This document shows positions 6,633 through 42,982 of a stretch of 42,982 bases of DNA, piece after piece. Source of the DNA: a bacterium (GTDB taxonomy: Bacteria; Pseudomonadota; Gammaproteobacteria; Burkholderiales; SG8-41); assembly GCA_027310225.1 (NCBI GenBank), contig DAIDBG010000244.1, positions 1-42,982 of the forward strand, read 5' to 3'. The first letter of the stretch is position 1. Each line of letters opens with the position of its first letter. The notes beneath the pieces were generated by a model. That model had not been told where the DNA came from. It searched no databases and worked only from the letters and a program-made list of their open reading frames with translations. The position numbers and the translations under genes are program-made.

Positions 6633-7025
6633 ATGAAACGCTCGATTCTTTGTACCGCAGTCGCCGCCCTCGCCCTGTCCGCGCCGCTGGCCCTCGCTCA
6701 GGACGCTAAACCCGCGCCCGGCAAGCCGGCTGCGGGCATGGGCATGGAGATGGACATGAACAAGCAGACGGCGCAGGGGCAGGAGCAGATGAAGAAGATG
6801 CAGGAGCAGATGACCCGCATCCACGAGACGACGGACCCGAAGGAACGTCAGAAGCTCGTGCAGGAGCACATGCAGAGCATGCAGGAAGTCATGGGCACAC
6901 AGCGCGGCATGGGCGGCTCGACGATGATGGGGATGATGGGCATGATGGGCGGACCGGGCGGCATGGGCGGCGGGCAGAAAGGCGGCACGGGTCCCGGGAT
7001 GATGGAGTCAGCTCCGGCGAAATAA
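6633..7025 (+). CDS. secreted Met/Gly-rich protein (possible periplasmic Cu(I) binder or chaperone)
   Basis: AGGAG RBS, signal peptide ending ALA-QD, GMGMEMDM, helical Q/M-rich middle, and a MMGMMGMMGGPGGMGGG tail. Confidence 0.7.
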   Translation: MKRSILCTAVAALALSAPLALAQDAKPAPGKPAAGMGMEMDMNKQTAQGQEQMKKMQEQMTRIHETTDPKERQKLVQEHMQSMQEVMGTQRGMGGSTMMGMMGMMGGPGGMGGGQKGGTGPGMMESAPAK

Positions 7026-7540: not shown

Positions 7541-7942
7541 ATGTACGGATTCAGCACCCGTCTCAGGGTCCCGTTCGACACCGCCGTCGAAAAAGTCACC
7601 GCAGCCCTCAAGACGGAAGGTTTCGGCGTGCTCACGGACATTGACGTCAAGGCGACGCTGAAAGCCAAGCTCGACGTGGAGCGGCGGCCTTATCGCATCC
7701 TCGGCGCGTGCAACCCGCCGCTCGCGCACCGCGCCATCGAGGCCGACCCGGACATCGGCCTGCTGCTGCCGTGCAACGTGGTGGTGCGCGAGGAAGACGA
7801 CGGCCGCATCTGGGTCGGGTTCATGGACCCGGAAGCCGTGCTCAAGCTGGTGGATAAGCCGGAAGTGCATGCGCTTGGCAGGGAAGTCCGGGCCCGCCTG
7901 CAACGGGTCTGCGAAGGACTCACACGCGACGGAACGCGATGA
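7541..7942 (+). CDS. DUF302 domain protein
   Basis: AAAGGAG RBS. Typical DUF302 sequence [17 protein letters not shown] ... YRILGACNP ... LLPCNVVV. Confidence 0.8.
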
Positions 7943-8712
7943 GCGGAGCCGCACCTCACGTCAATACCCAACGTCTGTGCCCTCATTGCGGCGCGCCGAC
8001 TTCCGGCACGCCCTATGCGCGTGAGCACGACGAATACGGCTGCGAAAGCTGTTTTCTCTCCGCTCGCAGACGGCAGGCGATGCCGCTCGAAGCTGATGAA
8101 ACACCGTTCGCGCTTGCGGAAGCGCTGATGTGTGCCCTGGATGCCCGGGAACACGAAACCGGGCTGCATTCGAAGCGGGTCGCCTGCCACACCCTGGTGC
8201 TCGCCCGTCATTTCTCCGGTGATGCAGGCGAGCTGCGCCAGGTTTACTGGGGCGCGCTGCTGCACGATATCGGCAAGATCGGCATCCCTGACGCCATCCT
8301 GCTGAAGCCCGCGCCGCTCACGCCGGAGGAGTGGCAGGTGATGCGCACGCACCCCGAAATCGGGCATCGCATCCTCTCCGGCGCCTCTTTCCTGGCGCAG
8401 GCGGCGGAACTCGTGCTGAGTCACGAGGAACGCTTCGACGGCACCGGCTATCCGCGCGGGCTGACGGGCGCAGCGATCCCGTTGTGGGCGCGGCTGTTCG
8501 CGGTCATTGACACGCTCGACGCCATCACCTCGGACCGGCCGTACCGCAAGGGGCTGCCGTTCGACGCGGCGCGGGCCCGAATCCGGGATCAGTCCGGAAG
8601 GCAGTTCGATCCGGCAGCGGTGGAAGTCTTCACGGCAGAGGAAACGACCTTGCGGGCAATGGTCGAGCTCAAATGCGGCGCGGCGGCGGTTCCCGATGAG
8701 CTGCTGGCCTGA
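7939..8712 (+). CDS. HD-GYP domain phosphodiesterase-like protein with N-terminal Cys4 module
   Basis: ATGA overlap with DUF302. N-terminal CPHCGAP-x16-CESC. HD-GYP signatures [11 protein letters not shown] and [14 protein letters not shown]. Confidence 0.8.
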
Positions 8713-8744
8713 CGCATTTTTGCAGGCGGCTTTGCGCAAGGAGC

Positions 8745-8766
8745 GTGTCGGCGCAAAGTCCGACAC
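8745..8766. terminator. hairpin GTGTCGG-N8-CCGACAC between convergent genes
   Basis: 7-bp stem with no clear U-tract. A second overlapping stem is CTTTGCGC/GCGCAAAG. Confidence 0.3.
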
Positions 8767-8770
8767 CCTC

Positions 8771-9256
8771 CTAGGCTTCCGCCATCCGGTTCGCGCGCGA
8801 CCGCCGCGCCGCAGCTTGCGCCTCACCCGGCCGGTGCGCAGCCTTGCCGCGCCCGCGGATCGCGGAGATGATCGGGCACGGCACGCACCCGGCGGCGAGC
8901 TCGCAATCGCGCATCAGCTTCTCCAGCACCGCGCGGATCCGCTCAAGGTCGGCGATCCTGGAAGAGACGTCCTCCAGCCGCCGCTGGGCGATCGCGCGGG
9001 CGCGCACATGGTCCACGCCGTCGCTCAGCGTGAGCAGCGTGGCGACGTCGTCGAGGGAAAAGCCGAGCGCCTGCGCGCGGCGGATGAACAGCAGGCGCTC
9101 TACGTAGTCGGGCGGATAGCCGCGCTGGCCGCCGAGGGGCCGCGCCGGGGTCCCGAGCAGCTTGCGCCTCTGGTAATAACGGATGGTCTCGACGCCCACC
9201 CCGGCCTGGCGGGCGAGCGTCCCGATGCGGAGGGGCCGCAAAGAGGTTTCAGGCAT
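8771..9256 (-). CDS. MerR-clade metalloregulator (Hg-MerR-like but His at the Cys82-equivalent position)
   Basis: GVGVETIRYYQRRKLL, ALGFSLDDVATLLTLSDGVDH and DCELAAGCVPCPIISAI align from memory to Tn501 MerR ([45 protein letters not shown]). Confidence 0.8.
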   Translation of the reverse strand: MPETSLRPLRIGTLARQAGVGVETIRYYQRRKLLGTPARPLGGQRGYPPDYVERLLFIRRAQALGFSLDDVATLLTLSDGVDHVRARAIAQRRLEDVSSRIADLERIRAVLEKLMRDCELAAGCVPCPIISAIRGRGKAAHRPGEAQAAARRSRANRMAEA

Positions 9257-9259
9257 AAC

Positions 9260-9291
9260 TTGACTCCGTACTTAGGTACGCTTTATATAAT
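9260..9291 (+). promoter_or_regulatory. mer-type promoter/operator: TTGACT, dyad CCGTAC-TTAG-GTACG, ATATAAT
   Basis: TTGACTCCGTACTTAGGTACGCTTTATATAAT compared with the remembered Tn501 merOP TTGACTCCGTACATGAGTACGGAAGTAAGGT. 19-20 bp spacer. The divergent merR-like ATG is 4 nt away. Confidence 0.7.
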
Positions 9292-9327
9292 GGCAGTGTT
9301 CCCATGAATTTTCAACAGGAGCGATGA

Positions 9328-9699
9328 ATGAGTGCGACCCGTAAACGCGATTCCCAGAACCACGCCTGCTGCGGCGGCGCAGCCCACGACGAGCACGCGC
9401 ACGCCGAGCCGGCCCCCGCCAAGCACGATCTTAAGCAGGAAGAGGCGCACGCCTGCTGCGGCGGCGGCGCAGCCCACGACGAGCACACGCACGCCGAGCC
9501 GGCCCCCGCCAAGCACGATCTTAAGCAGGAAGAGGCGCACGCCTGCTGCGGCGGCGGCGCAGCCCACGACGAGCACGCGCACACCGAGCCAGCCCCCGCC
9601 AAGCACGATCTTAAGCAGGAAGAGGCGCACGCCTGCTGCGGCGGCACAGCCCACGACGAGCACGCGCACGGCACAGCCGCACGGCGCACTTCACATTGA
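9328..9699 (+). CDS. tandem-repeat Cys/His-rich protein (4 units of HACCGG..HDEH.H), putative cytosolic metal binder
   Basis: AGGAG lies 6 nt upstream of ATG 9328. No signal peptide or TM helix. It is the first gene behind the mer-type promoter. Confidence 0.65.
   Translation: MSATRKRDSQNHACCGGAAHDEHAHAEPAPAKHDLKQEEAHACCGGGAAHDEHTHAEPAPAKHDLKQEEAHACCGGGAAHDEHAHTEPAPAKHDLKQEEAHACCGGTAHDEHAHGTAARRTSH
9361..9670 (+). repeat. direct tandem repeat, units of 87/90/90/43 nt, near-identical
   Basis: Units start at 9361, 9448, 9538 and 9628 (CACGCCTGCTGCGGCGGC...). In frame with CDS 9328..9699. Confidence 0.9.
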
Positions 9700-9720
9700 C
9701 ATGATTGGAAGCCACAGGCT
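9690..9720 (+). promoter_or_regulatory. CueR/MerR-type promoter (TTCACA, 19-bp spacer, CAGGCT) just upstream of copA
   Basis: Aligns without gaps to the sites at 27411 and 35284 (..ACATTG.CA.GAT.G.AAG.C..). Overlaps the stop codon of 9328..9699. Confidence 0.45.
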
Positions 9721-9730
9721 CTAGCCCACT

Positions 9731-12313
9731 ATGACCACCAGACAGATCACCCTGCCCGTCACCGGCATGACGTGCGCAAGCTGCGTATCGCATGTGGAAG
9801 GGGCGTTGAATAACCTTGCCGGCGTCGAGAAAGCGGCGGTGAATCTCGGCGCGGCGAAGGCGACTGTGGAATACGATCCGGCGCGCGCCTCGCCCGCGCA
9901 GATGTTTGCGGCCGTTGCGGACATCGGCTACGAGGTCGGCACCGCGCAGGCGACGTTGAGCGTATCGGGCATGAGCTGCGCGAGCTGCGTGGCGCACGTC
10001 GAAGGCGCGCTCAACGGGCTCGACGGCGTCACGAAAGCGGTGGTCAGCCTCGCGCTGAACACGGCCAGGGTCGAATACGTGCCGACGCTCGTCACGGTGG
10101 CGCAGATGAAGCGCGCGATCGGCGATGCGGGCTACGAGGCAGCCGAACCGGCTGCCGGCGTGTCGGCGATGGATCGCGAGCGGGAGGCGCGGCAGAAGGA
10201 GATCCGCCGCCAGGGGATGTATCTCCTGTTTGCCACACCGATTGCGCTCGCCGTGATGATCGGCACCTTTTACGAGTACCTGGCGCCAGCCTTCAGGCAG
10301 TTCATTCCCGCCCTGCTCGCCGAGAAATGGCTGCTCGGGGTGCTGACCACGCCCATCGTCTTCGGACCGGGGCGGCAGTTCTTCGTGAACAGCTTCCGCG
10401 GCCTGCGCCACGGCGTCACCGACATGAACCTGCTCTACGCGACGGGGATCGGCGCGGCGTACTTCATCGCCGTCATCAACACGCTGTGGCCCGACGCCGG
10501 GTTCGGTGGCAAGGGAGCGACCTTCTTCGAGTCCGCCGCGCTGCTCACGTGGTTCATCGTCCTCGGTCGCTACCTTGAGGCGCTGACGCGCGGGCGCACG
10601 AGCGATGCAATTCGCAAGCTGATGAGTCTGCAGCCCAAGACCGCGCGCGTGATGCGCAACGGGAACGAGATCGAAATCCCCGCCGACGAAGTGCTGGTCG
10701 AGGACCTGATCCGGGTGCGGCCGGGCGAGCGCATCCCGGTGGACGGCCTGCTCAAAGACGGCTACAGCGCGGTGGACGAGTCCATGCTGACGGGCGAGTC
10801 GCTTCCGGTCGAAAAGAAGGCGGGCGATACCGTCATCGGTGGGACCATGAACAAGACGGGCGCGTTCAGCTTCGTCGCGACCAAAGTGGGCGCCGACACG
10901 GCGCTCGCGCAAATCATCCGGCTGGTCGAGGACGCGCAGGCGTCCAAGGCGCCGATCCAGAAGCTCGCGGACTGGGTAGCGGGGCACTTCATTCTCGGGG
11001 TGCACCTGCTGGCGATCCTGGTGTTCGCGTTCTGGTTCTTCTTCGGTTATCAGATGTTCTTCGACCCGGACACGAGCTTCATTCTCTCGCCGGCGAAGCT
11101 CTCGGAGATCGGCGTGTTCGGTTTCTCGCTGCTCCTTTCGGTGACGGTGCTCATCATCTCGTGCCCGTGCGCGGTGGGGCTCGCGACCCCGAGTGCGATC
11201 ATGGCGGGCACGGGCAAGGTCGCCGAGCACGGGGTGCTGTTCAAGAACGCGGAGGCCATCGAGAACGCAGCAAAATTGCAGACGATCGTGTTCGACAAGA
11301 CCGGAACGATCTCGAAAGGCGAGGCGTCGGTGACCGATGTGGTGGTGGGCGGCGAAGCTCACGACTCGAAATCGGTGCTGCGGCTCGCCGCGATCGCCGA
11401 GAAGAACAGCGAGCATCCGCTGGGCGAGGCGATTGTGCGCGGCGCGAAAGAGCGCGGGCTGGAGGTTCCCGACGCCGAAGCATTCGACTCGATTCCCGGC
11501 CACGGCGTCGAGGCGCGCGTGGACGGGCGCGAGGTGCTGCTGGGCAATCGCAAGCTGATGGCCGCGCGCGGCGTGGACCTCGCGGGGCTGCTCGCCAAAG
11601 CCGAGGAGCTGGAGCGCGACGGCAAGACGGTGATGTTCGTGGCGGTGGACAACGCCCCGGCGGGCTTCATCGCGGTCGCGGACACGCTCAAGGACTACTC
11701 CGTCGAGGCGATCCGCACGCTGCACGCGCTCGGGATCGAGACCGCCATGATCACGGGCGACAACCGGCGCACGGCCGAGGCGATCGCCAGGCAGGTCGGG
11801 ATTGACCGCGTGTTCGCGGAGGTGTTGCCGCAGGACAAGGCCGCCGAAGTGAAGAAGTTGCAGGCGGCCGGCCGGCGCGTGGCGATGGTCGGGGACGGGG
11901 TGAACGACGCGCCCGCGCTCGCTCAGGCCGATGTCGGCATGGCGATCGGCTCGGGCACCGACGTGGCGAAGGAAACGGGGCATGTCATCCTCATCAAGGA
12001 CGACCTGCGCGACGTGGTGGTCGCGATCGAGGTGGCGAAGGCCACCATGCGCAAGGTGAAGGAGAATCTGTTCTGGGCGTTCATCTACAACACGCTCGGC
12101 ATCCCGCTTGGCGCGGGGCTGTTCTACCCGCTGTTTCGCGTCATCATCAGCCCCGAGCTGGCGGCGGCGCTGATGGCGATCAGTTCGCTCACGGTGACCT
12201 TCAACACCTTGTTCCTGCGCAGGTTCGTGCCGTCGCTGCGGCGCGGCGCGCGCGGCACGGGCGGACCCGAAGCACCGCGCGCGCCCGTGCTGGTGTCTTC
12301 GGCGGCGAAGTGA
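9731..12313 (+). CDS. copA: Cu(I)-translocating P1B-type ATPase with two HMA domains
   Basis: GMTCASC and GMSCASC, CPC ([11 protein letters not shown]), [13 protein letters not shown], plus TM5/6 YN and MAISS (P1B-1 pattern). Confidence 0.92.
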
Positions 12314-12325
12314 AGAGGTGCTGAA

Positions 12326-12544
12326 ATGGATCTGGACAGGAAAATCGCATTGACCAGCGCGGCGATCTACAGCGCGCTCTCGCTGACGGCGAGCGCATCG
12401 TTCTTCGTCGCCGCCACCGTCACGGGAGATTACACGGCGGTCGCGCGGATTGGCGGCGCGCTGTGGGTGCTGCTGCTGTCGTATATCGTGACGATGCCGC
12501 CGGTCATCTCGGCGGTGAAAAAGCGGATGAAAGCAACCCAATGA
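12326..12544 (+). CDS. small 2-TM membrane protein
   Basis: 72-aa ORF 12 nt after the copA stop. Two hydrophobic helices. Weak RBS AGAGGTG. Confidence 0.45.
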   Translation: MDLDRKIALTSAAIYSALSLTASASFFVAATVTGDYTAVARIGGALWVLLLSYIVTMPPVISAVKKRMKATQ

Positions 12545-12649
12545 GCGGCGCAGGCCTCAAGAGGAAGCACGTCTTTAGGTTCGCGGATGCCGCGCCTGCG
12601 GCATCCACGATGGAAGCGGCGTTTTGAACGACCAACCTGGAGGTGAAAC

Positions 12650-12826
12650 ATGGCAATTGATCCTGTATGCAAGATGAACGTGGAGCCGGCCAAGGCGGCG
12701 GCAAAGGCGGAGCACGCGGGGCAGACCTACTACTTCTGCTCTACGGCTTGCCACAAGACATTCACCGCACAACCGGGAAAATATGTGGGCGGCGCCCCGG
12801 GCGGTGGGACGCACTCCCACCACTAG
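12650..12826 (+). CDS. YHS/TRASH-type small metal-binding protein (58 aa, absent from ORF track)
   Basis: GGAGGTG RBS. MAIDPVCKMNVEPAKAAAKAEHAGQTYYFCSTACHKTFTAQPGKYVGGAPGGGTHSHH. Paralog of 26145..26339. Confidence 0.75.
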   Translation: MAIDPVCKMNVEPAKAAAKAEHAGQTYYFCSTACHKTFTAQPGKYVGGAPGGGTHSHH

Positions 12827-12858
12827 GAGTTTGTCGGGCCAGGGCCCGACACGCTCCC

Positions 12859-12896
12859 GGCAGCCTGTGCGGGCTGAACAGTCCGCACAGGCTGCC
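12859..12896. repeat. 14-bp perfect hairpin GGCAGCCTGTGCGG-N10-CCGCACAGGCTGCC (REP-like or terminator)
   Basis: Preceded by a second hairpin, GTCGGGCC-AGG-GCCCGAC. Same CAGCCTG/CAGGCTG core as at 973..1054 and 14116..14152. Confidence 0.55.
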
Positions 12897-12926
12897 AGCA
12901 GCAAAACTGCCTGCCCAGGATGACCC

Positions 12927-13541
12927 ATGCGCATCGCATCCAGGCCGTCCGCCTCCCAGCCGTGGTACCTGCGCCCGTTTTTCTGGATCAACGCCGCGCT
13001 CGGCGTTCCCGCCCGGGGAACCGGACCGCGGCGGAGCGCCGCTGCCCGGGGGCTGGCCGGGGCGGCGGCCGTCGCGGGGCTGCTGCTCGCGGGCGTGGCG
13101 TCCGCGGCGCACCCCCTTCGGCCGCAGACAGCGGACGGCATGGAAGTCTTTCTCGGGGTGATCCCCGCGGAAATCATGCTCGGCCATCCCGCCGGGCACC
13201 CCGAGCGGAGCCCGCACGGCAGCGTGCCGGCGTGGGGCGAGCAATACCATCTGGTCGTTTCACTGTTCGACCGTGCCAGCGGAGAGCGCATTCGCGACGC
13301 CGAAGTCAGCGCCACGGTGTCCGACGTGCGTCTGCCGGGCAAGCGCCTGGCGGGACCGCAAAAGCGGCTGGAACCGATGCTGCTCGACGGCGCGGTGGGC
13401 TACGGCAACTACTTCAACATGCCGGGCAGCGCCGCCTCGTACCGCATCGAGCTGGAAATTCGGCGCGGAGGCGCAGCACGCGCCGCCAAGGTAACATTCA
13501 ACTACGAGCATGTCGTGGTCCCCACGAAACCGCGGCCGTGA
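12927..13541 (+). CDS. secreted protein, possibly P19/FetP-like periplasmic metal-binding fold
   Basis: Long N-region with RRSAAARGLAG. GMEVFLGVIPAEIM, HLVVSLFD, YGNYFNM and YRIELEI resemble the remembered P19 layout. Paralog of the next gene. Confidence 0.55.
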   Translation: MRIASRPSASQPWYLRPFFWINAALGVPARGTGPRRSAAARGLAGAAAVAGLLLAGVASAAHPLRPQTADGMEVFLGVIPAEIMLGHPAGHPERSPHGSVPAWGEQYHLVVSLFDRASGERIRDAEVSATVSDVRLPGKRLAGPQKRLEPMLLDGAVGYGNYFNMPGSAASYRIELEIRRGGAARAAKVTFNYEHVVVPTKPRP

Positions 13542-13572
13542 ACCCGTTCCGATCCCATCCAAGGAGAGCATC

Positions 13573-14055
13573 GTGAATACCGGTTTTTTCCGAACACGCT
13601 TGATGCTGGCGGGTTTGACGCTGGTCGTCACAGCGCTCGCCGGCGCGGGCGCGGCCGTCGCCGCGGATTATTACAAGACCGCCGGCGGCCTCCAGATATA
13701 CCTGGGTGTGCTGCCGGCCGCAATGGTGCAGGAACACTCGCCGGAACACGTCGAAGGCAGGATGCACGGCGGCGTCCCGTCCGCCGGGAAACAGCATCAC
13801 GTGTTCATCGCCATTTTCGACACGAAGGACGGCAACCGCGTCAACGAGGCCGCAGTGACGGCCCGCGTGGCCGAGATCGGGCTCGCGCCGGTCGAGAAGA
13901 AACTCAATCCCATGGCCATCAACAAGACGATTTCGTACGGCAATTACTTCCCGATGGGCGCTCCCGGTCCGTACCGCATCGAGGTCGAGATCCTCCGGCC
14001 AGGCTCGGCCGGTCCGGTGAAGACCAGCTTCGACTATTCACACCCCCAGCGGTAA
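13573..14055 (+). CDS. secreted paralog of 12927..13541 (P19/FetP-like?)
   Basis: GTG 13573 follows AAGGAGA, in frame in track ORF 13510..14055. Signal peptide. LQIYLGVLPAAMV, HHVFIAIFD, YGNYFPM, YRIEVEI. Confidence 0.6.
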   Translation: MNTGFFRTRLMLAGLTLVVTALAGAGAAVAADYYKTAGGLQIYLGVLPAAMVQEHSPEHVEGRMHGGVPSAGKQHHVFIAIFDTKDGNRVNEAAVTARVAEIGLAPVEKKLNPMAINKTISYGNYFPMGAPGPYRIEVEILRPGSAGPVKTSFDYSHPQR

Positions 14056-14166: not shown

Positions 14167-15312
14167 ATGCGCAAGCTGTGGCTGGGTTTTGCCCAGGTAG
14201 CGACCATCCTGTTCGCGGCGCTCTACCTGGTTTCGCTGTTCCGCGCGGAGCCCCCGCTCCCGCGCGGCGAAGTCGTCACGGTAAAGGAGGAAGCCGCTCT
14301 GCCCGTGCCCGTGTCCGCGCCGGGCGCGGCCGCCAGCTACAGCGGCGCGGCAAAGAAAGCCATGCCGGCGGTGGTCAACATCTACACCACCAAGCAGGTC
14401 GCGCGCCGGCTTTCGCCGGAAGAGGAGCTGCTGCGCCGGTTCTACGGCGATCAGTTCAACAACCGGCCCGAGGCGGCGATGAGCTTGGGCTCCGGCGTCA
14501 TCGTGAGCGCGAACGGCTACGTGCTGACGAACAACCACGTGATCGAGGGCGCGGACGAAATCGCGGTGGTGGTCCCGGGCCGCGAACCGGTCGGCGCGCG
14601 CGTGGTGGGAACCGACCCGGAAACCGATCTCGCCGTGCTCAAGGTCCAGGCTGAAAAACTGCCGACCATCACCTTCGGCAACCCGGACCGGCTGCAGGTG
14701 GGTGACGTGGTGCTCGCCATCGGCAACCCGTTCGGCGTCGGCCAGACGGTCACCCAGGGCATCGTCAGCGCCACCGGCCGCACCCGGCTCGGCATCAGCA
14801 CCTTCGAGAACTTCATCCAGACCGACGCCGCCATCAATCCCGGCAACTCGGGCGGCGCGCTGGTGGACACGAACGGCGACCTGGTCGGAGTCAATACCGC
14901 GATCTTTTCCAAAACCGAGGGTTCGGTCGGCATCGGTTTCGCCGTTCCGGTCAGTCTCGCGAAGCAGGTCATGGAACAGATCATCAGGCAGGGCCGTGTC
15001 GAACGCGGCTGGATCGGCGTGCAGGCACAGGATATTGCGCCGGAGGCCGCGGACTCCGGCAGGCGCGGCCCGGTCAAGGGCGCCCTCATCGCCGGCGTGA
15101 TGCGGGGGGCACCGGCCGAGAAAGCGGGACTCAGACGCGGGGATATCGTCGTGGCGATCAACGGCAAGCCGATCGCCGACGTGACCGACCTCATCAACCT
15201 GACCGCGGCACTGAAGCCGGGGGAGCGCGGCGAATTCACCGTGCTGCGGGAAGGGCGGGAAGCAAAGCTCACCATGGAGGCCGGGACACGGCCGCGGCAG
15301 CCCCGGCCCTGA
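14167..15312 (+). CDS. DegP/HtrA-family periplasmic serine protease (single PDZ, DegS/AlgW-like)
   Basis: N-terminal TM helix. Catalytic-triad blocks TNNHVIEGAD, DLAVLKV and GNSGGALV. One PDZ domain. Confidence 0.88.
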   Translation: MRKLWLGFAQVATILFAALYLVSLFRAEPPLPRGEVVTVKEEAALPVPVSAPGAAASYSGAAKKAMPAVVNIYTTKQVARRLSPEEELLRRFYGDQFNNRPEAAMSLGSGVIVSANGYVLTNNHVIEGADEIAVVVPGREPVGARVVGTDPETDLAVLKVQAEKLPTITFGNPDRLQVGDVVLAIGNPFGVGQTVTQGIVSATGRTRLGISTFENFIQTDAAINPGNSGGALVDTNGDLVGVNTAIFSKTEGSVGIGFAVPVSLAKQVMEQIIRQGRVERGWIGVQAQDIAPEAADSGRRGPVKGALIAGVMRGAPAEKAGLRRGDIVVAINGKPIADVTDLINLTAALKPGERGEFTVLREGREAKLTMEAGTRPRQPRP

Positions 15313-15338
15313 GCGCGCACGCGGCACGGAGAATGCGG

Positions 15339-16676
15339 ATGAAGAACGATCTCACCGGTTCCGGGCTCGCGGACCGGAAACCGTCGCCCGCGGCCGCCAT
15401 CGTGCGCAGCCTGTTTCAAGGCTGCGACGGAAATCTCGAAGTCCGTCTGTGGGACGGCGCCACCTTCCGGTTCGGAGCCCGGCCACCGGAAGCTGCGCTG
15501 GTCTTTCACCATCCCCGTCCTTTGCGCGAAGCCGTCCTGTCGGGGGATCCGCTGCGGCTCCTGGACGCTCATTTTCGCGGCCTCATTGACATCGAGGGCG
15601 ATATTTACGCGGCGCTGAGGCTGGAGCGGCATTTCGAATCGCTGAAACTGTCCCCCTTCGGGAAACTGTCAATACTCATCCAGGCCCTCCTGCAACCCGA
15701 TCCGGCCTTCCCTGAGGACGGACGGCAACGCCCTGCACCGGCGCCGCGCTCCCTGCGCCGGAGGTGGTTCGGGACGAGCACGAAAAACGACAACCGGAAC
15801 GCCATCGCATTCCATTACGACGTCTCCAACGATTTCTACCGTCTGTGGCTCGACCGGAACATGGTGTACTCGTGCGCCTATTTCGAGAGCGCCGGGGATG
15901 ACCTGGATGAGGCCCAGCGCAACAAGCTGGACCATCTCTGCCGCAAGCTGCGGCTGAAGCCCGGCGAGCGCCTGCTCGACATCGGCTGCGGCTGGGGCGC
16001 GCTCATCTGCCGGGCGGCCGGGCACTACGGCGTGCGCGCCCACGGCATCACCCTGAGCCGCAACCAGTATGAATACGCCCGGCAGGCGATCCGGGAACAA
16101 GGGCTGGAAGAGCGCGCGACGGTGGAGCTCCGGGACTACCGCGATTTCCGGGACAACGCCCCCTTCGACAAGATCGTCAGCGTCGGCATGTTCGAGCACG
16201 TCGGGCTGAAGAACCTCCCGCTTTATTTCGGCACCGCCCACCGCCTGCTCCGGCCCGGCGGCCTGTTCCTGAACCACGGGATCACCCATGATCGGGAAGG
16301 CTGGCGGGAAACCCCGTCCACCCGCTTCATCAACCGCTACGTGTTTCCCGACGGCGAGCTCGACACGATCGGCAACGTGCAGCGCGTCATGGAACGGTGC
16401 GGGTTCGAAATCCACGATGTCGAGGGACTGCGGCCCCATTACGCCCTCACCCTCAGGCACTGGGTGCGGCGGCTGGAGCAGCGCCGGCAGGAAGCGCTGC
16501 GCTACGTGCCGGAAAACGTGTACCGGGTATGGCGCCTGTACATGGCTGTCTGCGCCCTGCACTTCGAGGACGGCGACATCGGCGTCTATCAGATCCTCGC
16601 CTCGAAGCGGACCCCCGGCGCCCGGCCGGTTCCACTGACCCGCCGCGACCTCTACGACCGCCCGGTTTCCGCCTGA
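15339..16676 (+). CDS. cfa: cyclopropane-fatty-acyl-phospholipid synthase family methyltransferase
   Basis: HYDVSNDFYRLWLD..MVYSCAYF and LLDIGCGWGAL. ATG 15339 has better spacing to GGAGA than ATG 15333. Confidence 0.85.
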   Translation: MKNDLTGSGLADRKPSPAAAIVRSLFQGCDGNLEVRLWDGATFRFGARPPEAALVFHHPRPLREAVLSGDPLRLLDAHFRGLIDIEGDIYAALRLERHFESLKLSPFGKLSILIQALLQPDPAFPEDGRQRPAPAPRSLRRRWFGTSTKNDNRNAIAFHYDVSNDFYRLWLDRNMVYSCAYFESAGDDLDEAQRNKLDHLCRKLRLKPGERLLDIGCGWGALICRAAGHYGVRAHGITLSRNQYEYARQAIREQGLEERATVELRDYRDFRDNAPFDKIVSVGMFEHVGLKNLPLYFGTAHRLLRPGGLFLNHGITHDREGWRETPSTRFINRYVFPDGELDTIGNVQRVMERCGFEIHDVEGLRPHYALTLRHWVRRLEQRRQEALRYVPENVYRVWRLYMAVCALHFEDGDIGVYQILASKRTPGARPVPLTRRDLYDRPVSA

Positions 16677-16689
16677 CGGGCAAAGGCCC

Positions 16690-17931
16690 GTGGCCGACGA
16701 TCTCACCCCCTTTCGCCAGCTGCTCGTCTCGCTGCTGCTCGGGCTGCTCGTCGGCATCCAGCGCGAATGGCGGCAGGAGAGCCTGGCGGGCGTGCGCTCG
16801 TTCACGCTCGTGACGCTGGCCGGCACCATCACCGCGATGCTCGCCGGGCAATTCGGCGGGATCCTGATGGCCGCCGCGGCGCTCGCCGTCACCGCGCTGA
16901 TCGTCATGAAGCAGCGGTATCAATCCCCGTCGGACGCCGCGAGCCCCGGGTTGAGCACGGAGTTCGCCCTTCTGGTGATGTTCGGCGTCGGCGCGCTGGT
17001 GCGCACCGCACCGGCCTGGGTGGCGATCTCCGCGGCCGGAATCACGGCCGTCATGCTGCAGGCAAAGATGGAGCTTCACGGCCTGGCGCGCCGGCTGACC
17101 CAGGAGGACCTGCGGTCGGTGTCGCAGTTCGTTCTGGTCGCGCTGGTCATCCTGCCGGTGCTGCCCGACGAAGCCTATGGTCCGTACGCGGTGCTCAACC
17201 CCCATCACATCTGGCTGGTCGTCGTGATCATCGTCGGCATCGGCCTTGCGGGCTACGTGGCGTACCGCCTGTTCGGCGAGCGCGCCGGAGCGCTGATGAG
17301 CGGCGTGCTGGGCGGCCTCATCTCCAGCACGGCGACCACCCTCGGTTACGCCCGGCAGGCGCGCGACAACCCCGGGCATGTTCATCACGTCGCCTTCGTG
17401 ATCGTGCTCGCGTGGGCCATCCCGTACGCGCGGATCGCAGTACTGGTGGGGCTGGTCACGCAGAGCCTGCGGCCCATCTATCTGCCGCTCGCCGCCTTGT
17501 TCGCCCTGACGCTGCTGTTCGCGGCGATGAACTGGCGCGGCACGAAAAAGGACATCGCCGGCATGCCGCCGCAGGAGAACCCGTCGGAACTGGGCACCGC
17601 GCTGGTCTTCGCTGTCCTCTACTCCGTGATCCTGCTCGGCGCGGCCTGGGCCCAGAACCAGATCGGCAGCCGCGGCCTGATCGCGGTCAGCGCGCTTGCG
17701 GGCCTCACCGATCTGGACGCGATCGCCTTGTCGGTGGCCCGCCTCGTCGAGAGCGGGCGCGCGGCCACGGCCGAAGCCTGGCCGGCAATGGCGACGGCGA
17801 TTTTTGCGAACGTGACGTTTCGCGGACTGGTTGCGTGGTCGGTCGGCGGGCGGGCCCTGTTTCGCGCGCTGGCCCTGCCGTGGATCGCGACGCTTGTCGC
17901 CATCGTCGTGCTGGCGCTGGCGGGAGCCTGA
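16690..17931 (+). CDS. MgtC/SapB-family N-terminus plus DUF4010-type polytopic membrane protein
   Basis: GTG start. LLLGLLVGIQREW..SLAGVRSFTLV, followed by about 10 TM helices. Confidence 0.75.
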   Translation: MADDLTPFRQLLVSLLLGLLVGIQREWRQESLAGVRSFTLVTLAGTITAMLAGQFGGILMAAAALAVTALIVMKQRYQSPSDAASPGLSTEFALLVMFGVGALVRTAPAWVAISAAGITAVMLQAKMELHGLARRLTQEDLRSVSQFVLVALVILPVLPDEAYGPYAVLNPHHIWLVVVIIVGIGLAGYVAYRLFGERAGALMSGVLGGLISSTATTLGYARQARDNPGHVHHVAFVIVLAWAIPYARIAVLVGLVTQSLRPIYLPLAALFALTLLFAAMNWRGTKKDIAGMPPQENPSELGTALVFAVLYSVILLGAAWAQNQIGSRGLIAVSALAGLTDLDAIALSVARLVESGRAATAEAWPAMATAIFANVTFRGLVAWSVGGRALFRALALPWIATLVAIVVLALAGA

Positions 17932-17948
17932 GGCGCCGGCCCGATCGC

Positions 17949-17962
17949 TTGATCTAGATCAA
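17949..17962 (+). promoter_or_regulatory. perfect FNR/CRP-family box TTGATCTAGATCAA upstream of ftsH
   Basis: TTAAAT at 17985..17990 lies 22 nt downstream. ftsH ATG at 18087. Confidence 0.55.
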
Positions 17963-18086
17963 CCGCCGGCGGAACCCTCTCTGGTTAAATGAAATCCAAC
18001 TTGTTGCGCCTAATTGAAAGGACATGAAGATGGAATGGTGGTCACCGTATCGGGACTTCAAAGCAGCGGCTTGAGCGGGACGCGCC

Positions 18087-19985
18087 ATGGAACGCAGGCA
18101 GCAGTTCTCGATCTGGTACTTCCTCAGCGTCTTTCTGATCCTGATCGCCTTCCAGAACCTCTTTTTCCAGCAGCACGTGGAAACGCTCGCCTACAACGAA
18201 TTCAAGTCAGCGCTGAAGGCGCGCAAGGTCATCGAGGTCACGCTCACGGATGAGGCCATCACCGGCAAGCTGGCGCGGGACGGGCTGGAGGGGCTGCTGC
18301 CGCCTGCGAGAGTTTCGGAATTGCAGCGCGCCAGCCAGGACCCGGGCCCGCACGCTTTCACCACGGTGCGCGTCAACGATCCCGAGCTGGTCCAGGAGCT
18401 GGAAGCCGCCCGGGTGCGCTTCAGCGGCCAGTTCGAGAACAAGTGGCTCGGCGCCATCCTCTCCTGGGTCGTTCCCGCCGTGATCTTCGTCGCCCTGTGG
18501 GGATTCCTCATGAAACGCATGGGCGCCGCCGGCGGCATGATGGAAATCGGCAAGAGCAAGGCCAAGGTCTATATGGAGAAGCAGACCGGCGTCACGTTCG
18601 CCGACGTCGCCGGCATTGACGAGGCAAAAACCGAATTGATGGAGGTCGTCGAGTTCCTCAGGACGCCCGGGCGCTACCGGCGGCTCGGCGGCAAGCTTCC
18701 GAAGGGCGTGCTGCTGGTGGGCGCACCGGGGACCGGCAAGACGCTGCTCGCCAAGGCGGTCGCGGGAGAAGCCAGTGTGCCATTTTTTTCCATGAGCGGC
18801 TCCGACTTTGTGGAGATGTTCGTCGGCGTGGGCGCCGCGCGCGTGCGCGACCTTTTCCAGCAGGCCGAAAAGACGGCGCCCTGCATCATTTTCATTGACG
18901 AACTCGACGCGCTCGGCAAGGCCCGCGGCATCAATCCGATGGGCGGCCACGACGAGCGCGAGCAAACCCTCAACCAGCTTCTCGTGGAGATGCACGGCTT
19001 CGACACCAACAAGGGCGTCATCATCATGGCCGCCACCAACCGGCCGGAGATCCTCGACCGCGCCCTGCTGCGGCCCGGCCGGTTCGACCGCCATGTCACG
19101 GTTGACCGGCCCGATCTCAAGGGCCGGGAAGCCATCCTGCGGGTGCACAGCCAGCATGTCATGCTGGCGCCGGAAGTGGACCTCACGGCGCTCGCGGCGC
19201 GCACGCCGGGCTTTGCCGGCGCCGATCTCGCGAACCTGGTGAACGAGGCGGCGCTGCTCGCCGCGCGCAAGGGCAGGAACGCGGTGGGGATGGCCGATTT
19301 TGACGAGGCCATTGATCGCATCGTGGCCGGCCTCGAGAAGAAAAACCGGGTGATGAACCCGATGGAGAAGGAAACGGTCGCCTACCACGAGGCCGGACAC
19401 GCACTGGTGGCGGAGTCGCGCCCGCACGCGGACAGGGTCGGCAAGATCTCCATCATCCCGCGCGGCATCGTTGCGCTGGGCTACACCCAGCAGCAGCCCA
19501 CCGAAGACCGCTACCTCCTGCGCAAGAGCGAACTGCTCGACCGGCTCGACGTCCTGCTCGGCGGGCGCGTCGCGGAAGACATCGTGTTCGGCGACGTCTC
19601 CACCGGAGCACAGGATGATCTTCAACGGGCGTCCGATCTCGCGCGCCACATGGTCACCCAGTACGGCATGAGCGAGAAGCTCGGCCTCGGGACCTTCGAG
19701 GAGCCCCGCGGCCCGGTGTTTCTCAACAACCCCACGGTGCAGGAAGCACGCTCGCTCAGCGAGCGCACGGCGCAGGCGATCGACCAGGAGGTGGCGCGGT
19801 TGCTGGCCGGAGCGCAGGAGCGGGTGCGCGCGACGCTGATCGAGCGGCGCGCCGCGCTCGATGCGCTCGCCGCGGTGTTGCTGGAAAAGGAAGTGGTGGA
19901 CGGCGCGACGCTGCGGGAGCTTCTGGCGCGCCATACCACGGGTGACAAGAGCCGCGGCCGCGCCGCTGAAAGCAAGGCGGCATGA
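18087..19985 (+). CDS. ftsH: ATP-dependent zinc metalloprotease FtsH (island paralog)
   Basis: Two TM helices, Walker [18 protein letters not shown], second region of homology, HEAGH zinc site. Confidence 0.92.
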
Positions 19986-22366
19986 AAACCCTCGTCATCG
20001 AAGTGGGCGGGCTGTTCTCGTCGCTGTGCGCCCGCGGCGTGGAAAAACAACTGCGCGCCCTGCCCGGCGTGACGCGCGCGGAAGTGAGCTACGCCACGGG
20101 CACCGCCACGCTCGCCTACGACGAGACCGCGACCGATCTCAAGGCGATCAAGGCGGTGGTGCAGGCCTGCGGCTACCACTGCGCGGGCGAGTCGGTCCCC
20201 GCGCACCTCTGCCATCCCGAAGATCCACCGGCGGACGCGGCCGTCGCAACCGCCGGCGCGGTGGCGCATGCGGGACACGCGCCTGCCGCGCACGTCGGGC
20301 ATGCGAAGCCTGCGGCCCCCGCGGCGCCGGCGAAGGCCCCGGCCGCGGCGCACGCCGCTCACGCCAGGGACGAGATGGCGCACGAGATGGGTCACGGCGC
20401 CGGCATGGACATGGCCGGGATGGCGCGCGACATGCGCAACCGCTTCATCGTCGCGTTCGTGTTCGCCGTGCCGGTCTTTCTCTACGCGTCGGTGATGACG
20501 CAGTTCCTTCAGCTCCAGCCGCCGTTCGGGCTGGAGATGAGCAAGTTCCTGTTCGTGCTCGCCACGGGCGCCATCCTCTACCCCTCCTGGCCGTTCGTCG
20601 TCGCCGCCTGGCGGGCGGTGAGGAACGGCGTCGCCAACATGGCGGTGCTGGTGGTGCTGTCGGTCGGCACGGGCTACCTCTTCAGCGTGGCCGCCACGTT
20701 CCTGTTCGAGGGCGAGCAGTTCTACGAGGCTTCGTCCGTGCTGCTGGTGTTCATCCTGCTCGGCCACTGGCTGGAGATGCGCGCCCGCGCCGGCGCCTCG
20801 GACGCGATCCGCGCGCTGATGGATCTCGCGCCGCCCATGGCGACGGTGGTCCGCGACGGCCGCGAAGTCGAGGTGCCGACCGCGGACGTCGTCAAGGGCG
20901 ACATCGTTCTCATCCGGCCCGGCAACAAGGTCCCGGTAGATGGCGAGGTCATCGAGGGGAAATCCACGGTGGACGAGTCCATGCTCACCGGGGAATCCAT
21001 GCCGGTCGGCAAGGCGCCCGGCGATACCGTGATCGGCGCCACCATCAACAAGAGCGGCAGCTTCCGCTACCGCGCGACCAAGGTCGGCGCGGACACCGCG
21101 CTGGCGCAGATCGTGAAGCTGGTGCAGGAGGCGCAGAACTCCAAGGCGCCGGCGCAGCGGCTCGCCGATCGGGCTTCCCAGTGGCTCGTGCTCGCGGCCA
21201 TCGTCATCGGCCTCATCACCTTCGCCGCGTGGTTCTGGTGGAGCGGCCAGACGCTGCTCTTCGCGCTGACGCTCACCATCACGGTGTTCGTCATCGCCTG
21301 CCCGGACGCGCTGGGGCTCGCGACGCCGATGGCGATCAGGATCGGCACCGGACGCGGCGCGCAGAACGGGATCCTGATCAAGAACGCCACCGCACTCGAG
21401 AACGCGACCCGGCTCGACGTGATCGTCTTCGACAAGACCGGCACCCTCACCCTGGGGCAGCCCGAAGTGGTCGCGCTCGCGGCCGCGCCGGGCGCCGCCG
21501 AGGACGAGCTGCTCGCGCTGGCGGGCGCGGTCGAGAAGCACTCCGAGCACCCGCTCGCGCAGGCGATCCTGAAGCACGCCGGCGGCCTCGCGCGGGAGAC
21601 CGCGACCGCCTTCACCAATATTGAAGGCCAAGGCGCGCGCGCCGACGTCGGCGGGCGAGCCGTCCTCGTCGGCAACCGCCGGCTGATGGACGCGGAGAAG
21701 GTGGATATGGCGGGTCTGGAGGCGAAATCCGCCGAAATGCAGGGGGCCGGACGCACGGTGGTGCACGTGGCGCGGGGCGGCAGGCTGGTCGGCCTGATCG
21801 CGATTGCCGACGCGGTGCGCCCCACCTCGGCGGCCACCGTGAAAGCGCTGCAGGAACGCGGCGTCCAGGTGGCGATGCTCACCGGAGACAACCGTGCGAC
21901 CGCCGAGCGCATCGCCCGGGAACTCGGCATCGATATCGTGCTGGCCGACGTGCTGCCGGGACAGAAGGCGGACGAGGTGAAGAAGCTCCAGCAGCAGGGA
22001 AAGAAGGTCGGCATGGTGGGCGACGGCGTCAACGACGCCCCCGCGCTCACCCAGGCCGAGGTCGGCTTCGCCATCGGCGCCGGCACCGACGTCGCGATGG
22101 AGAGCGCCGACGTGGTGCTGATGAAGAGCGATCCCCGGGACGTGGTGGGCGCGGTCGAGCTCTCGCGCGCCACGCTGCGCAAGATGAAGCAGAACCTGTT
22201 CTGGGCGGTGGGCTACAACGTGATCGCCTTTCCGCTCGCCGCGGGCGTGTTCTATCCCCTGCTGCTCAGCCCCGAGATCGCCGCGCTCGCCATGTCCGGC
22301 AGCTCGCTGATCGTGGCGGTGAACGCGCTGATGCTCAAGCGGACGCAACTCGCGGGACTCAAGTAA
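19982..22366 (+). CDS. CopB-like P1B-type ATPase with His/Met-rich N-terminus and CPD in TM4
   Basis: ATGA overlap with the ftsH stop. Degenerate HMA ([11 protein letters not shown]). [38 protein letters not shown] (codons 21299..21307). [20 protein letters not shown]. Confidence 0.9.
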
Positions 22367-26077: not shown

Positions 26078-26144
26078 CCCGCCGGCCGATGGGGGTGGCA
26101 GAGTGCAGCCTTGTTTGGTCCAACCCGTTAAGGAGAACCAGACC

Positions 26145-26339
26145 ATGAAAGTCACCGATCCCGTGTGCGGGATGAGCATCGAGTCGGAAAAGGCCCATGC
26201 CAGCGAAAAGTACCAGGGCAACACTTACTATTTGTGCTCGCCCCAGTGCCAGCAATCGTTCAAGGCGAACCCCGCGAAATTCGCGGCCAAGGCCGGCCCG
26301 GCCGGCGGCGTAGGCACCCACGGCGGGCACCATCACTAA
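26145..26339 (+). CDS. YHS/TRASH-type small metal-binding protein
   Basis: AAGGAGA RBS. In-frame ATG within track ORF 25986..26339. MKVTDPVCGMSI..YQGNTYYLCSPQCQQSFKANP...HGGHHH. Confidence 0.8.
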   Translation: MKVTDPVCGMSIESEKAHASEKYQGNTYYLCSPQCQQSFKANPAKFAAKAGPAGGVGTHGGHHH

Positions 26340-26940: not shown

Positions 26941-27414
26941 ATGAATGACCGGCAGATGAACATCGGCGAGGCGGCGAGGCGCTCGGGCGTCTCGGCGAGG
27001 ATGATCCGTCACTACGAGTCGATCGGCCTCATCCCGAAGGCGCCGCGCGCGTATTCGGGGTATCGCGCCTACTCGGGCAACGACGTGCACACGCTGCGCT
27101 TCATCCGCCAGGCGCGCAGCCTGGGGTTCTCCGTGAGTCAGATCGAGCAGCTCCTCGGCCTGTGGCGCGATCAGAGCCGGCCGAGCCGCAGGGTGAAGGC
27201 GCTCGCGCTGGCGCACGTCGCCGAGCTCGAGCAGCGCATCCGCGAGCTCGGCGCCATGAAGCGCACGCTGGAGCAGCTCGCAGCGCACTGCCACGGCGAC
27301 GAGCGGCCGGAGTGCCCGATCCTCGACGGCCTCGCCGTACCGGCCGGCGCCCGCCGGCGATCGCCGGCCCGTCCGGATTTGACGCAGATCAAACCGAAGG
27401 CGCGCGCTTGTTGA
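26941..27414 (+). CDS. cueR: MerR-family Cu(I)-responsive regulator, CueR/HmrR-like
   Basis: MNIGEAARRSGVSARMIRHYESIGL and the C-terminal CHGDERPECPILDGL (C-x7-C) loop. Confidence 0.85.
   Translation: MNDRQMNIGEAARRSGVSARMIRHYESIGLIPKAPRAYSGYRAYSGNDVHTLRFIRQARSLGFSVSQIEQLLGLWRDQSRPSRRVKALALAHVAELEQRIRELGAMKRTLEQLAAHCHGDERPECPILDGLAVPAGARRRSPARPDLTQIKPKARAC
27379..27392 (+). promoter_or_regulatory. FNR-like box TTGACGCAGATCAA (one half-site mismatch)
   Basis: Inside the cueR 3' end, 18 nt upstream of the TTGACA at 27411. Confidence 0.3.
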
Positions 27415-36940: not shown

Positions 36941-37068
36941 TCGCTGCAACTTCGAAGGAACATTGAAGGTCACAGTCACAATTCACGGGGTTTTCGCGCT
37001 CGTGCGCGCCGCAGCCGCGCCATACGTGCCGCTTGAAGAACAGGCGCTTGGAATATTGGGAGCTAACG

Positions 37069-42698: not shown

Positions 42699-42982
42699 GT
42701 GGAGTGGTTATCACAAAATTGGGTATGGGTCCTGATTGGCGTGGCATTTGTGGCGATGCACCTGTTTGGCCATGGCCACGGCGGGCATGGCGGCGGCGGA
42801 CATGGCGGCGGGGGGCATGGCGGCGGCGACGGCGGTCATGGCGAGCAGCCTGACAGCCGCGCGGCGTCAAACGCGCCGGAAGCAGCCATTGATCCCGTGA
42901 GCGGCGAAGCGGTGCGCACCGCCCAGGCGCTGACTTCGCTCTACCAGGGAAAGATCTATTACTTCGCCTCGAAGGAAAACCG
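42699..42982 (+). CDS. DUF2933-like N-terminus, His/Gly-rich linker and Cys-less YHS-like domain (partial, runs off the window)
   Basis: GTG 42699 follows AAGGAGA. VEWLSQNWVWVLIGVAFVAMHLFGHGHGGHGGGGHGGGGHGGG...IDPVSGEAVRTAQALTSLYQGKIYYFASKEN. Confidence 0.65.
   Translation, partial: MEWLSQNWVWVLIGVAFVAMHLFGHGHGGHGGGGHGGGGHGGGDGGHGEQPDSRAASNAPEAAIDPVSGEAVRTAQALTSLYQGKIYYFASKEN

Follow-up and report, generated by a model that had tools for sequence, protein, structure and literature searches.

Several described systems resemble the locus reported here. The cytosolic metallochaperone CopZ is a free-standing copy of the HMA domain of the copper ATPase CopA, and Hpn of Helicobacter pylori is a Cys/His-rich metal binder of comparable kind to the tails considered below. 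SilE/PcoE, the Ag/Cu "molecular sponge" of the sil/pco systems, is periplasmic and intrinsically disordered (PMC5008109). His-rich N-terminal extensions with TRASH/YHS domains have been described for SilP-type ATPases of Rhizobiales, for SilP and for Lpg1024 (PMC5552934). The tail of plant HMA4 combines di-Cys motifs with a His stretch and has nanomolar affinity for Zn (PMC6255694), and the C-terminal Cys/His tail of E. coli SlyD binds up to 7 Ni (PMC7055735). We analysed a metagenomic contig of 42,982 nucleotides (DAIDBG010000244.1, assembly GCA_027310225.1; hereafter the window) from a bacterium of the SG8-41 lineage of the Burkholderiales, and in particular its small open reading frame (ORF) 9328..9699, which encodes a repetitive Cys/His-rich protein just upstream of a copA gene. 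We propose, with a probability of roughly 0.55, that this ORF is the detached N-terminal His/Cys metal-binding tail of a SilP-like P1B-1 ATPase and now serves as a cytosolic Cu(I)/Ag(I) buffer, the origin being much the firmer part of this explanation and the function the less firm one.

The ORF starts with ATG on the + strand and encodes 123 amino acids (ORF list). Its in-frame units of 87, 90, 90 and 43 nt, reported in an initial annotation made from the sequence alone, were confirmed by the ORF list and by Tandem Repeats Finder, which placed the array at 9366..9670 with a period of 90, 3.4 copies, 95% matches and a score of 554. The array is the sole large tandem repeat of the 43-kb window. 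Where four copies had been described, there are three full units and a fourth that is truncated at 43 nt. The ORF lies, as annotated, between a mer-type promoter (TTGACT, dyad, TATAAT) on its 5' side and an HMA-type CopA on its 3' side, and the AGGAG reported 6 nt before its ATG is present. The features of the locus are the following.

8771..9256, - strand: MerR-family regulator, 161 aa, divergent from the small ORF (Pfam MerR_1/MerR-DNA-bind; loop DCELAAGCVPCP)
9260..9291, + strand: mer-type promoter/operator, -35 TTGACT at 9260-9265 and -10 TATAAT at 9286-9291
9287..9315, - strand: overlapping sigma-70-like promoter of the regulator, TTGAAA-17-CATTAT (consensus scan)
9317..9321, + strand: ribosome-binding site (RBS) AGGAG, 6 nt 5' of the ATG, within the conserved block TTTCAACAGGAG of the 5' untranslated region
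9328..9699, + strand: small ORF with 8 Cys (four vicinal pairs), 20 His and 21 Asp+Glu; predicted disordered
9328..9360, + strand: unique N-terminal segment MSATRKRDSQN, aligning with the first ATPase residues of loci L181 and L183
9361..9447, + strand: repeat unit 1, 87 nt, 29 aa, HACCGGAAHDEHAHAEPAPAKHDLKQEEA
9448..9537, + strand: repeat unit 2, 90 nt, 30 aa, HACCGGGAAHDEHTHAEPAPAKHDLKQEEA
9538..9627, + strand: repeat unit 3, 90 nt, 30 aa, HACCGGGAAHDEHAHTEPAPAKHDLKQEEA
9628..9670, + strand: repeat unit 4, truncated, 43 nt, HACCGGTAHDEHAH
9671..9730, + strand: junction, comprising the non-repeat ORF end GTAARRTSH, the stop codon TGA at 9697-9699 and a 31-nt spacer
9731..12313, + strand: CopA, P1B-1 Cu(I)/Ag(I)-type ATPase with 2 HMA domains, CPC, YN and MxxSS

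The units are distinguished by five substitutions and by 3-nt indels within a (GGC)n run, and their near-identity (95% match) bears out the recent expansion proposed earlier. In the shuffled window, 0 chance matches were expected for the CCGG...HDEH DNA motif. The product has a mass of 12.9 kDa, an isoelectric point of about 6, a grand average of hydropathy of -1.1 and one Met only. Because no stretch of 19 residues exceeds a Kyte-Doolittle value of -0.34, it possesses neither a transmembrane (TM) helix nor a signal peptide, in agreement with the initial annotation. An AlphaFold2 model in single-sequence mode showed a predicted local distance difference test score of 46 and no secondary structure, and the product is predicted to be disordered.

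The origin of the ORF was apparent from sister loci that carry relatives of the regulator. In L181, L183, L184, L185, L186, L190 and L191, a P1B-1 ATPase is encoded divergently from the regulator, the first five being among the regulator relatives whose contigs reach far enough. These ATPases are composed of a variable N-terminal tail, a YHS domain (absent from L190 and L191), one or two HMBD (CPxCGM) and a CPC core. They carry the P1B-1 signature CPC, YN, MxxSS, like the window CopA. Their tails are His-rich, often with vicinal Cys pairs, and the H-x-C-C-G motif with its His cluster recurs in tails of cultured organisms such as Nitrobacter hamburgensis. The tails compared were:

L183: MNKQRDNASTTHACCGHGAHSHGHAEHGHQTHDENKSAHACCGDAVHAKEHALHGHAEQVTDPVCGM, two units; MNKQRDNASTTHACCGHGAHSHGHAEHGHQTHDENKSAHACCGDAVHAKEH...DPVCGM
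L181: ..KTHGCCGHGASSHG.., containing THGCCGHG
L185: ..HAQSCCGAHDHEDGHGAH..
L186: ..THECCDHE..
L190: ..HAACCHA..
L027: MEKEHSCCGNH..
Nitrobacter hamburgensis plasmid 2, ATPase WP_011505175: ..AACCGDGHGGHDHDAHEH..

A BLASTP comparison of the ORF with the L183 N-terminus gave E=1e-6 under composition adjustment, with 45-50% identity, and every unit of the window could be aligned (for example MNKQRDNASTTHACCGHGAHSHGHAEHGH...HACCGD...). About 60 of the first residues of the sister ATPase align with the small ORF, and an alignment of four sequences (A1) contains 16 invariant columns, including M1 and H-x-C-C-G. In DNA alignments (A2, A3), the operator, the TTTCAACAGGAG block and the ATG are in register between the window, L181 and L183. 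Therefore the start of the small ORF corresponds to the start codon of the sister ATPases, and its reading frame is fixed by this correspondence. Compared across related loci, as had been suggested initially, the number of units is 1-2 in the relatives and 4 in the window. The initial annotation had recognised no family; the ORF is homologous to the N-terminal tails of the SilP-like ATPases in these loci and, judged from the alignments, it is not an unrelated new family but a detached, amplified piece of a known ATPase N-terminal extension. Together with the predicted disorder, this homology lends indirect support to a role as a cytosolic soft-metal binder.

The window ORF and the tails have the same regulator subfamily, operator, RBS and start codon, in addition to the sequence homology to L183 and L181. 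In contrast to the tails, the ORF is free-standing, being closed by its own stop codon, is devoid of YHS and HMBD and comprises four units; the CopA that comes after it is of the HMA type and from a different lineage (44% core identity). This CopA, which matches TIGR01511 with 580 bits, has CPC at residue 478 (TM4), DKTGT at 522, YN at 786 (TM5) and MAISS at 815 (TM6), and is assigned as a P1B-1 Cu(I)/Ag(I) pump on the basis of these motifs. Its core is 39-44% identical to those of the sister ATPases, versus 63-72% for the regulators (44% and 63%, respectively, for L186), and its N-terminus is made of HMA domains, unlike the YHS/HMBD of the sister ATPases. The reading frame does not continue into YHS/HMBD and an ATPase core, as the stop codon lies at 9697-9699 and copA is in another frame. 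A fusion of the ORF with copA hidden by a single sequencing error was considered and rejected, since the frame differs and a TAG at 9722-9724 stands two codons before the copA ATG.

In the mechanism that we propose, the ATPase body behind a regulator-promoter-tail cassette would have been exchanged in a rearrangement, with the tail persisting as an ORF of its own; its 90-nt unit would then have been amplified by slippage or unequal recombination. The tail ORF would be co-transcribed and translated with CopA. Its acidic, disordered 12.9-kDa product could use its four Cys-Cys pairs and about 20 His to bind Cu(I)/Ag(I), and would buffer the cytosol as a sponge, possibly handing metal to CopA. Such chemistry has precedents in the tails of HMA4 and SlyD and, in the periplasm, in SilE.

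An ORF in a comparable position was observed in L004, the closest GTDB relative, whose regulator is 62% identical. There, a 62-aa ORF (1464-1652, - strand; MSVEIPLGDLPAGRKRCCCSP...SGCCSSTKEK) with CCC and CC clusters and an ambiguous coding signal lies directly behind the same operator and a AACAGGAGCG RBS. Next in order come genes for a Met-rich periplasmic protein, a DUF2933-like protein and a SilP-like ATPase that itself bears a short His tail. The 62-aa ORF exhibits no significant similarity to the window ORF (BLASTP E=1.3), and may represent a second free-standing Cys-pair first gene.

Considering the known systems, the likeness to CopZ is that a cytosolic metal-binding module exists both fused to a pump and separate in the same operon. 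However, the window ORF presents neither the ferredoxin-like fold nor GMxCxxC, CxxC or the Pfam HMA domain (PF00403) of the CopZ/HMA metallochaperones, and is instead disordered, with vicinal Cys pairs and His. Like SilE/PcoE, it is small, disordered, built of repeated metal-binding motifs, located in a Cu/Ag efflux locus and proposed to act in buffering; SilE, in contrast, is secreted and uses His/Met, while the window ORF has no signal peptide, uses Cys/His, which fits the reducing cytosol, and shows no sequence similarity to SilE. With SlyD, HMA4 and Hpn it shares vicinal Cys pairs among His, Asp and Glu, a predicted unstructured state and, putatively, multi-ion binding, although those tails bind Ni, Zn or Cd, are attached to a peptidyl-prolyl isomerase or a Zn/Cd pump, and showed no homology to it (the PDB search was empty at E<=10). 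The metallothioneins (SmtA/BmtA, MymT) and Csp are, as proposed for the window ORF, small cytosolic Cys-containing buffers induced by metal stress, but the window ORF, with 8 Cys in 123 aa, is far poorer in Cys, is dominated by His and has no zinc-finger-like or four-helix-bundle fold and no match to these families. The ORF is thus a member of none of the CopZ, metallothionein, Csp and SilE families. It is possible, though we hold this only tentatively, that it is the first of a new class of disordered cytosolic proteins serving as Cu(I)/Ag(I) sponge or metallochaperone, a thiolate/imidazole counterpart of periplasmic SilE that would have been born by fission of an ATPase tail, would have its capacity tuned by the copy number of the 90-nt unit, and would count the L004 ORF as a second, diverged member.

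No second clear stand-alone copy of the small ORF was found in any database searched. No Pfam or NCBIfam model matched it above cut-off, a word-indexed search of 5.8 billion clustered proteins gave no homolog of the 123-aa protein, and HMMER against 1.84 billion representatives gave 3 matches, all of them unrelated repeat proteins that were rejected (a CheC-like protein, a beta-helix protein with CCGGAIY repeats and a eukaryotic protein). The GTDB genomes contained 61 pattern matches with 0 confirmed, tblastn of the ORF against plasmids returned nothing, and the exact-sequence gene index had no record of either the small ORF or CopA. The profile and BLAST search of the 123-aa protein that the initial annotation had proposed therefore yielded no credible homolog in the databases, the match obtained being that to the L183 N-terminus. 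A profile of the four tails (A1) gave 41 candidates in the 5.8 billion clusters, none with E<=10, the tails being too short and too biased in composition for such a search. A DNA motif scan of metagenomes (CCGG...H[DE][DE]H) gave, among the matches listed, single chance matches and only generic Cys/His tails (L104, L132, L159), including a SlyD-like tail GCCGGHDDHG in L132; the window's own contig was not among the matches listed. Other candidates were discarded: the one match of the L183 tail alone to plasmids (tblastn) was spurious, the weak lines for Galaxin_repeat, Malate_DH and geopeptide were below cut-offs and driven by composition, and an 82-aa Cys/His-rich ORF beside merR in L041 and L043 lies on the antisense strand of an ATPase gene, at its 3' end.

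We then have to weigh whether the ORF is a mere relic of the rearrangement, i.e. the leftover 5' end of the replaced SilP-like ATPase gene, expanded by neutral slippage and encoding a peptide without a selected role. The ATPase body has clearly been replaced, no other stand-alone copy exists in the databases searched, and the ORF end GTAARRTSH with the junction at 9671-9730 resembles non-coding filler; in this ORF end and spacer we found no convincing resemblance to anything, and in the junction no terminator, no good RBS for copA and no remnant of YHS/HMBD. A relic would also agree with the mediocre codon score and with repeats that are nearly identical, hence recent and not yet exposed to selection. 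Nevertheless, the strong RBS, the ATG and the inducible promoter are intact, so that any induction of copA should also bring about translation of the ORF. None of the 8 Cys and 20 His has been lost, the units rose from the 1-2 of the relatives to 4 instead of decaying, and the 62-aa ORF of L004, with its CCC/CC clusters behind the same promoter and RBS, provides a positional analogue. We regard the relic as rather unlikely, yet as the main rival of the buffer.

The coding signal itself is mixed. The frame of the ORF has the highest codon score among the three forward frames, and its G+C content by codon position is 0.78/0.54/0.81. The following observations speak against the buffer that we favour. 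The codon score is -0.03, compared with 0.2-0.8 for ordinary genes of the window, and the in-phase antisense frame scores 0.24, above the ORF frame. Among the about 5 differences between units none is informative, and selection is not demonstrable from units that are too young; the in-frame 3-nt indels, as they fall in the (GGC)n run, can be explained without selection. Additionally, the arrangement is seen in one metagenomic contig only, the 5.8 billion clusters, 1.84 billion representatives, GTDB genomes and plasmids provided no stand-alone homolog, copA has no clear RBS of its own, and HMA-type CopAs usually partner with CopZ rather than with such peptides. Finally, both the expression of the peptide and its metal binding are properties that we infer from its sequence.

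The repeat and its link to copA depend on the assembly, and the repeat number, or the join of MerR/tail to copA, might have been made by the short-read metagenome assembler from stacked strain variants or as a chimeric join. Two Logan contigs, k=31 assemblies of the independent samples SRR5161795 (L001) and SRR5161805 (L002), match the window over 7765-9400 with one mismatch and over 8422-9400 with none, respectively. Both end at 9400, the end of the first repeated 30-mer. As a k=31 graph must branch there if at least two unit variants coexist, this end point supports the repeat, the contigs bearing on its presence, not on how many units there are or how they connect to copA. They are the sole independent contigs and are silent on what follows, the single-nucleotide differences specific to units could equally be strain variants, and the gene index, as mentioned, had no exact record of CopA or of the small ORF. 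On the other hand, all k-mers across 9300-9720 are unique at k>=99, so that the array can be resolved with ordinary 150-nt reads. The start of CopA is normal for HMA-type CopAs, and an original fusion of the ORF with copA would need two errors, a frame change and the loss of the TAG at 9722-9724. An assembly artefact is thus very unlikely. L001 and L002 contain the same regulator and ORF start, but the gene caller recorded only a 24-aa fragment there, which accounts for the absence of the small ORF protein from protein databases.

The promoter in front of the ORF exhibits the features of MerR-type activated promoters, namely an over-long spacer, a dyad operator and a divergent merR-family gene. 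The perfect dyad CGTAC-TTAG-GTACG at 9267-9280 lies between the -35 and -10 elements, and TTGACT and TATAAT are separated by 19-20 nt, a spacing typical of such promoters; a scan limited to 16-18 nt spacers found no promoter on the + strand and, on the - strand, the overlapping promoter of the regulator. The operator is the same as that of the bona fide merR-merT loci L007, L010, L011 and L033.

The best NCBIfam model for the regulator is Hg-MerR (TIGR02051), with 128 bits, below the cut-off of 150.85, while CueR (TIGR02044) gave 81.5 bits for a cut-off of 147.4. Tn501 MerR has three Cys at positions 82, 117 and 126, of which Cys82 is needed for trigonal Hg(II) binding. At the position aligned to Cys82 the regulator of the window has a His and its relatives an Arg, and the two C-terminal Cys are kept. 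According to these scores and residues, the regulator is neither CueR nor a true Hg-MerR. The view of the ORF as first gene of a MerR-controlled Cu-ATPase operon stands as to its position and its mer-type promoter, and has to be amended as to the regulator. With no Cys at the Cys82 position and the two C-terminal Cys retained, the regulator probably senses monovalent soft metals; in the proposed mechanism, Cu, Ag or Au would be sensed and the long-spacer promoter activated.

These mercury-like traits raise the question of whether the peptide binds another metal, either Hg(II) or divalent Zn, Cd or Ni as in the tails of HMA4, SlyD and Hpn. MerT, MerC and the C-terminus of MerA typically contain vicinal Cys pairs. 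The operator is identical to that of mer operons, and Hg-MerR is both the best model match of the regulator and its nearest plasmid relative, genuine Hg-MerRs being at most 53% identical to it. Moreover, tails with di-Cys motifs and His bind Zn or Ni in HMA4 and SlyD (PMC6255694, PMC7055735). Against this, the regulator subfamily has no Cys aligned to MerR Cys82, the window CopA, like the sister ATPases, has the signature motifs of a P1B-1 Cu(I)/Ag(I) pump, and neither merT nor merP nor merA was found in the window. We consider another metal to be highly improbable.

The regulator belongs to a MerR-like subfamily in which the mer operator is retained, the Cys82 position is occupied by Arg or His and the loop DCEHxSGHVPCP is conserved (DCELAAGCVPCP in the window). 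Its members are the window regulator (8771-9256), L181, L183, L185, L186, L003 and L004. They are mostly paired with SilP-like ATPases, and once (L003) with an ICMT-family membrane protein. Close relatives of the regulator (63-76% identity) were found only in metagenomes.

The short distance between the ORF and copA was also considered from the point of view of regulation. If the ORF were a regulatory leader, its translation, perhaps modulated by metal through the nascent peptide, would control the translation or mRNA stability of copA, which is without an obvious RBS and begins 31 nt beyond the stop of the ORF; in L004, too, the genes behind the same promoter are headed by a small ORF that contains Cys. 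Yet 123 aa with four repeats far exceed what a leader needs, and the segment simply belongs to the ATPase in most sister loci. The scan of 8500-13000 found no terminator in the 31-nt gap and no terminator or attenuator structure, and Rfam gave nothing relevant in this region, so that we hold a leader role to be most improbable. Taken as a whole, the earlier interpretation of a soft-metal buffer or chaperone is partly supported, and the observation on which it was built is confirmed.

Downstream of copA, the window contains two further small ORFs:

12326..12544, + strand: 72-aa hydrophobic ORF directly 3' of copA, no family match; possibly a member of the operon
12650..12826, + strand: stand-alone YHS-domain protein, 58 aa (Pfam YHS 2.7e-14)

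In the fused ATPases of the sister loci, the domain next to the tail is YHS; in the window, this domain occurs as two separate small ORFs only, the second at about 26140-26300 (+ strand; MKVTDPVCGMSIESEK...). An HMBD motif is present nowhere in the window. A motif scan of the window upheld the annotated lack of a stand-alone HMA/CopZ gene, HMA motifs being found solely within P-type ATPases.

Two more P1B ATPases bring the metal pumps to three per 43 kb. The one at 19982-22366 (+ strand) has CPD rather than CPC/CPH as its TM4 motif, an N-terminal HMA-like domain without CxxC (SSLCARG) and a His/Ala/Met-rich linker; the other, at 37033-39558 (+ strand), has two HMA domains. Between two metal ATPases, the genes at 14167-19985 (+ strand) encode a DegP-like PDZ protease, a cyclopropane-fatty-acid synthase, an MgtC/DUF4010 protein and FtsH, which suggests that this gene run is part of a composite stress/metal-tolerance island. 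Two neighbouring ORFs of 204 and 181 aa (12927-13541 and 13510-14055, + strand), which overlap slightly and lie downstream of the copA-YHS genes, look like paralogs by eye, with the common motifs YLGV.PA, HGG.VP,.FD..G.R and YGNYF.M..Y.IE.EI.R; neither has a Pfam or NCBIfam match. A Met-rich secreted protein at 6633-7025 (+ strand; ..MGMEMDM..MMGMMGMMGG..) resembles the second gene of the L004 operon (1043-1462, - strand; ..MNMMHGMMGGG..MMEQRMDMMQMMMEQMM), neither of these Met-rich proteins having a Pfam match. The window also carries a second MerR-family regulator at 26941-27414 (+ strand) and, near its end, a 15-nt tandem repeat of CATGGCGGCGGCGGG with 3.9 copies at 42771-42828.

If the ORF is a relic, the locus is of local interest only. 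It is an instructive case of domain fission and tandem amplification, and it draws attention to the Cys-Cys/His tails that precede YHS in SilP-type pumps, which are common in sequence data and have received little experimental study, as is also true of the MerR-like subfamily with a mer operator and without the mercury-specific cysteine. If the peptide is made and used, the locus would capture, in the act, an origin of metallochaperones and metal buffers, in which the tail of a pump is cut loose and then tandemly duplicated.

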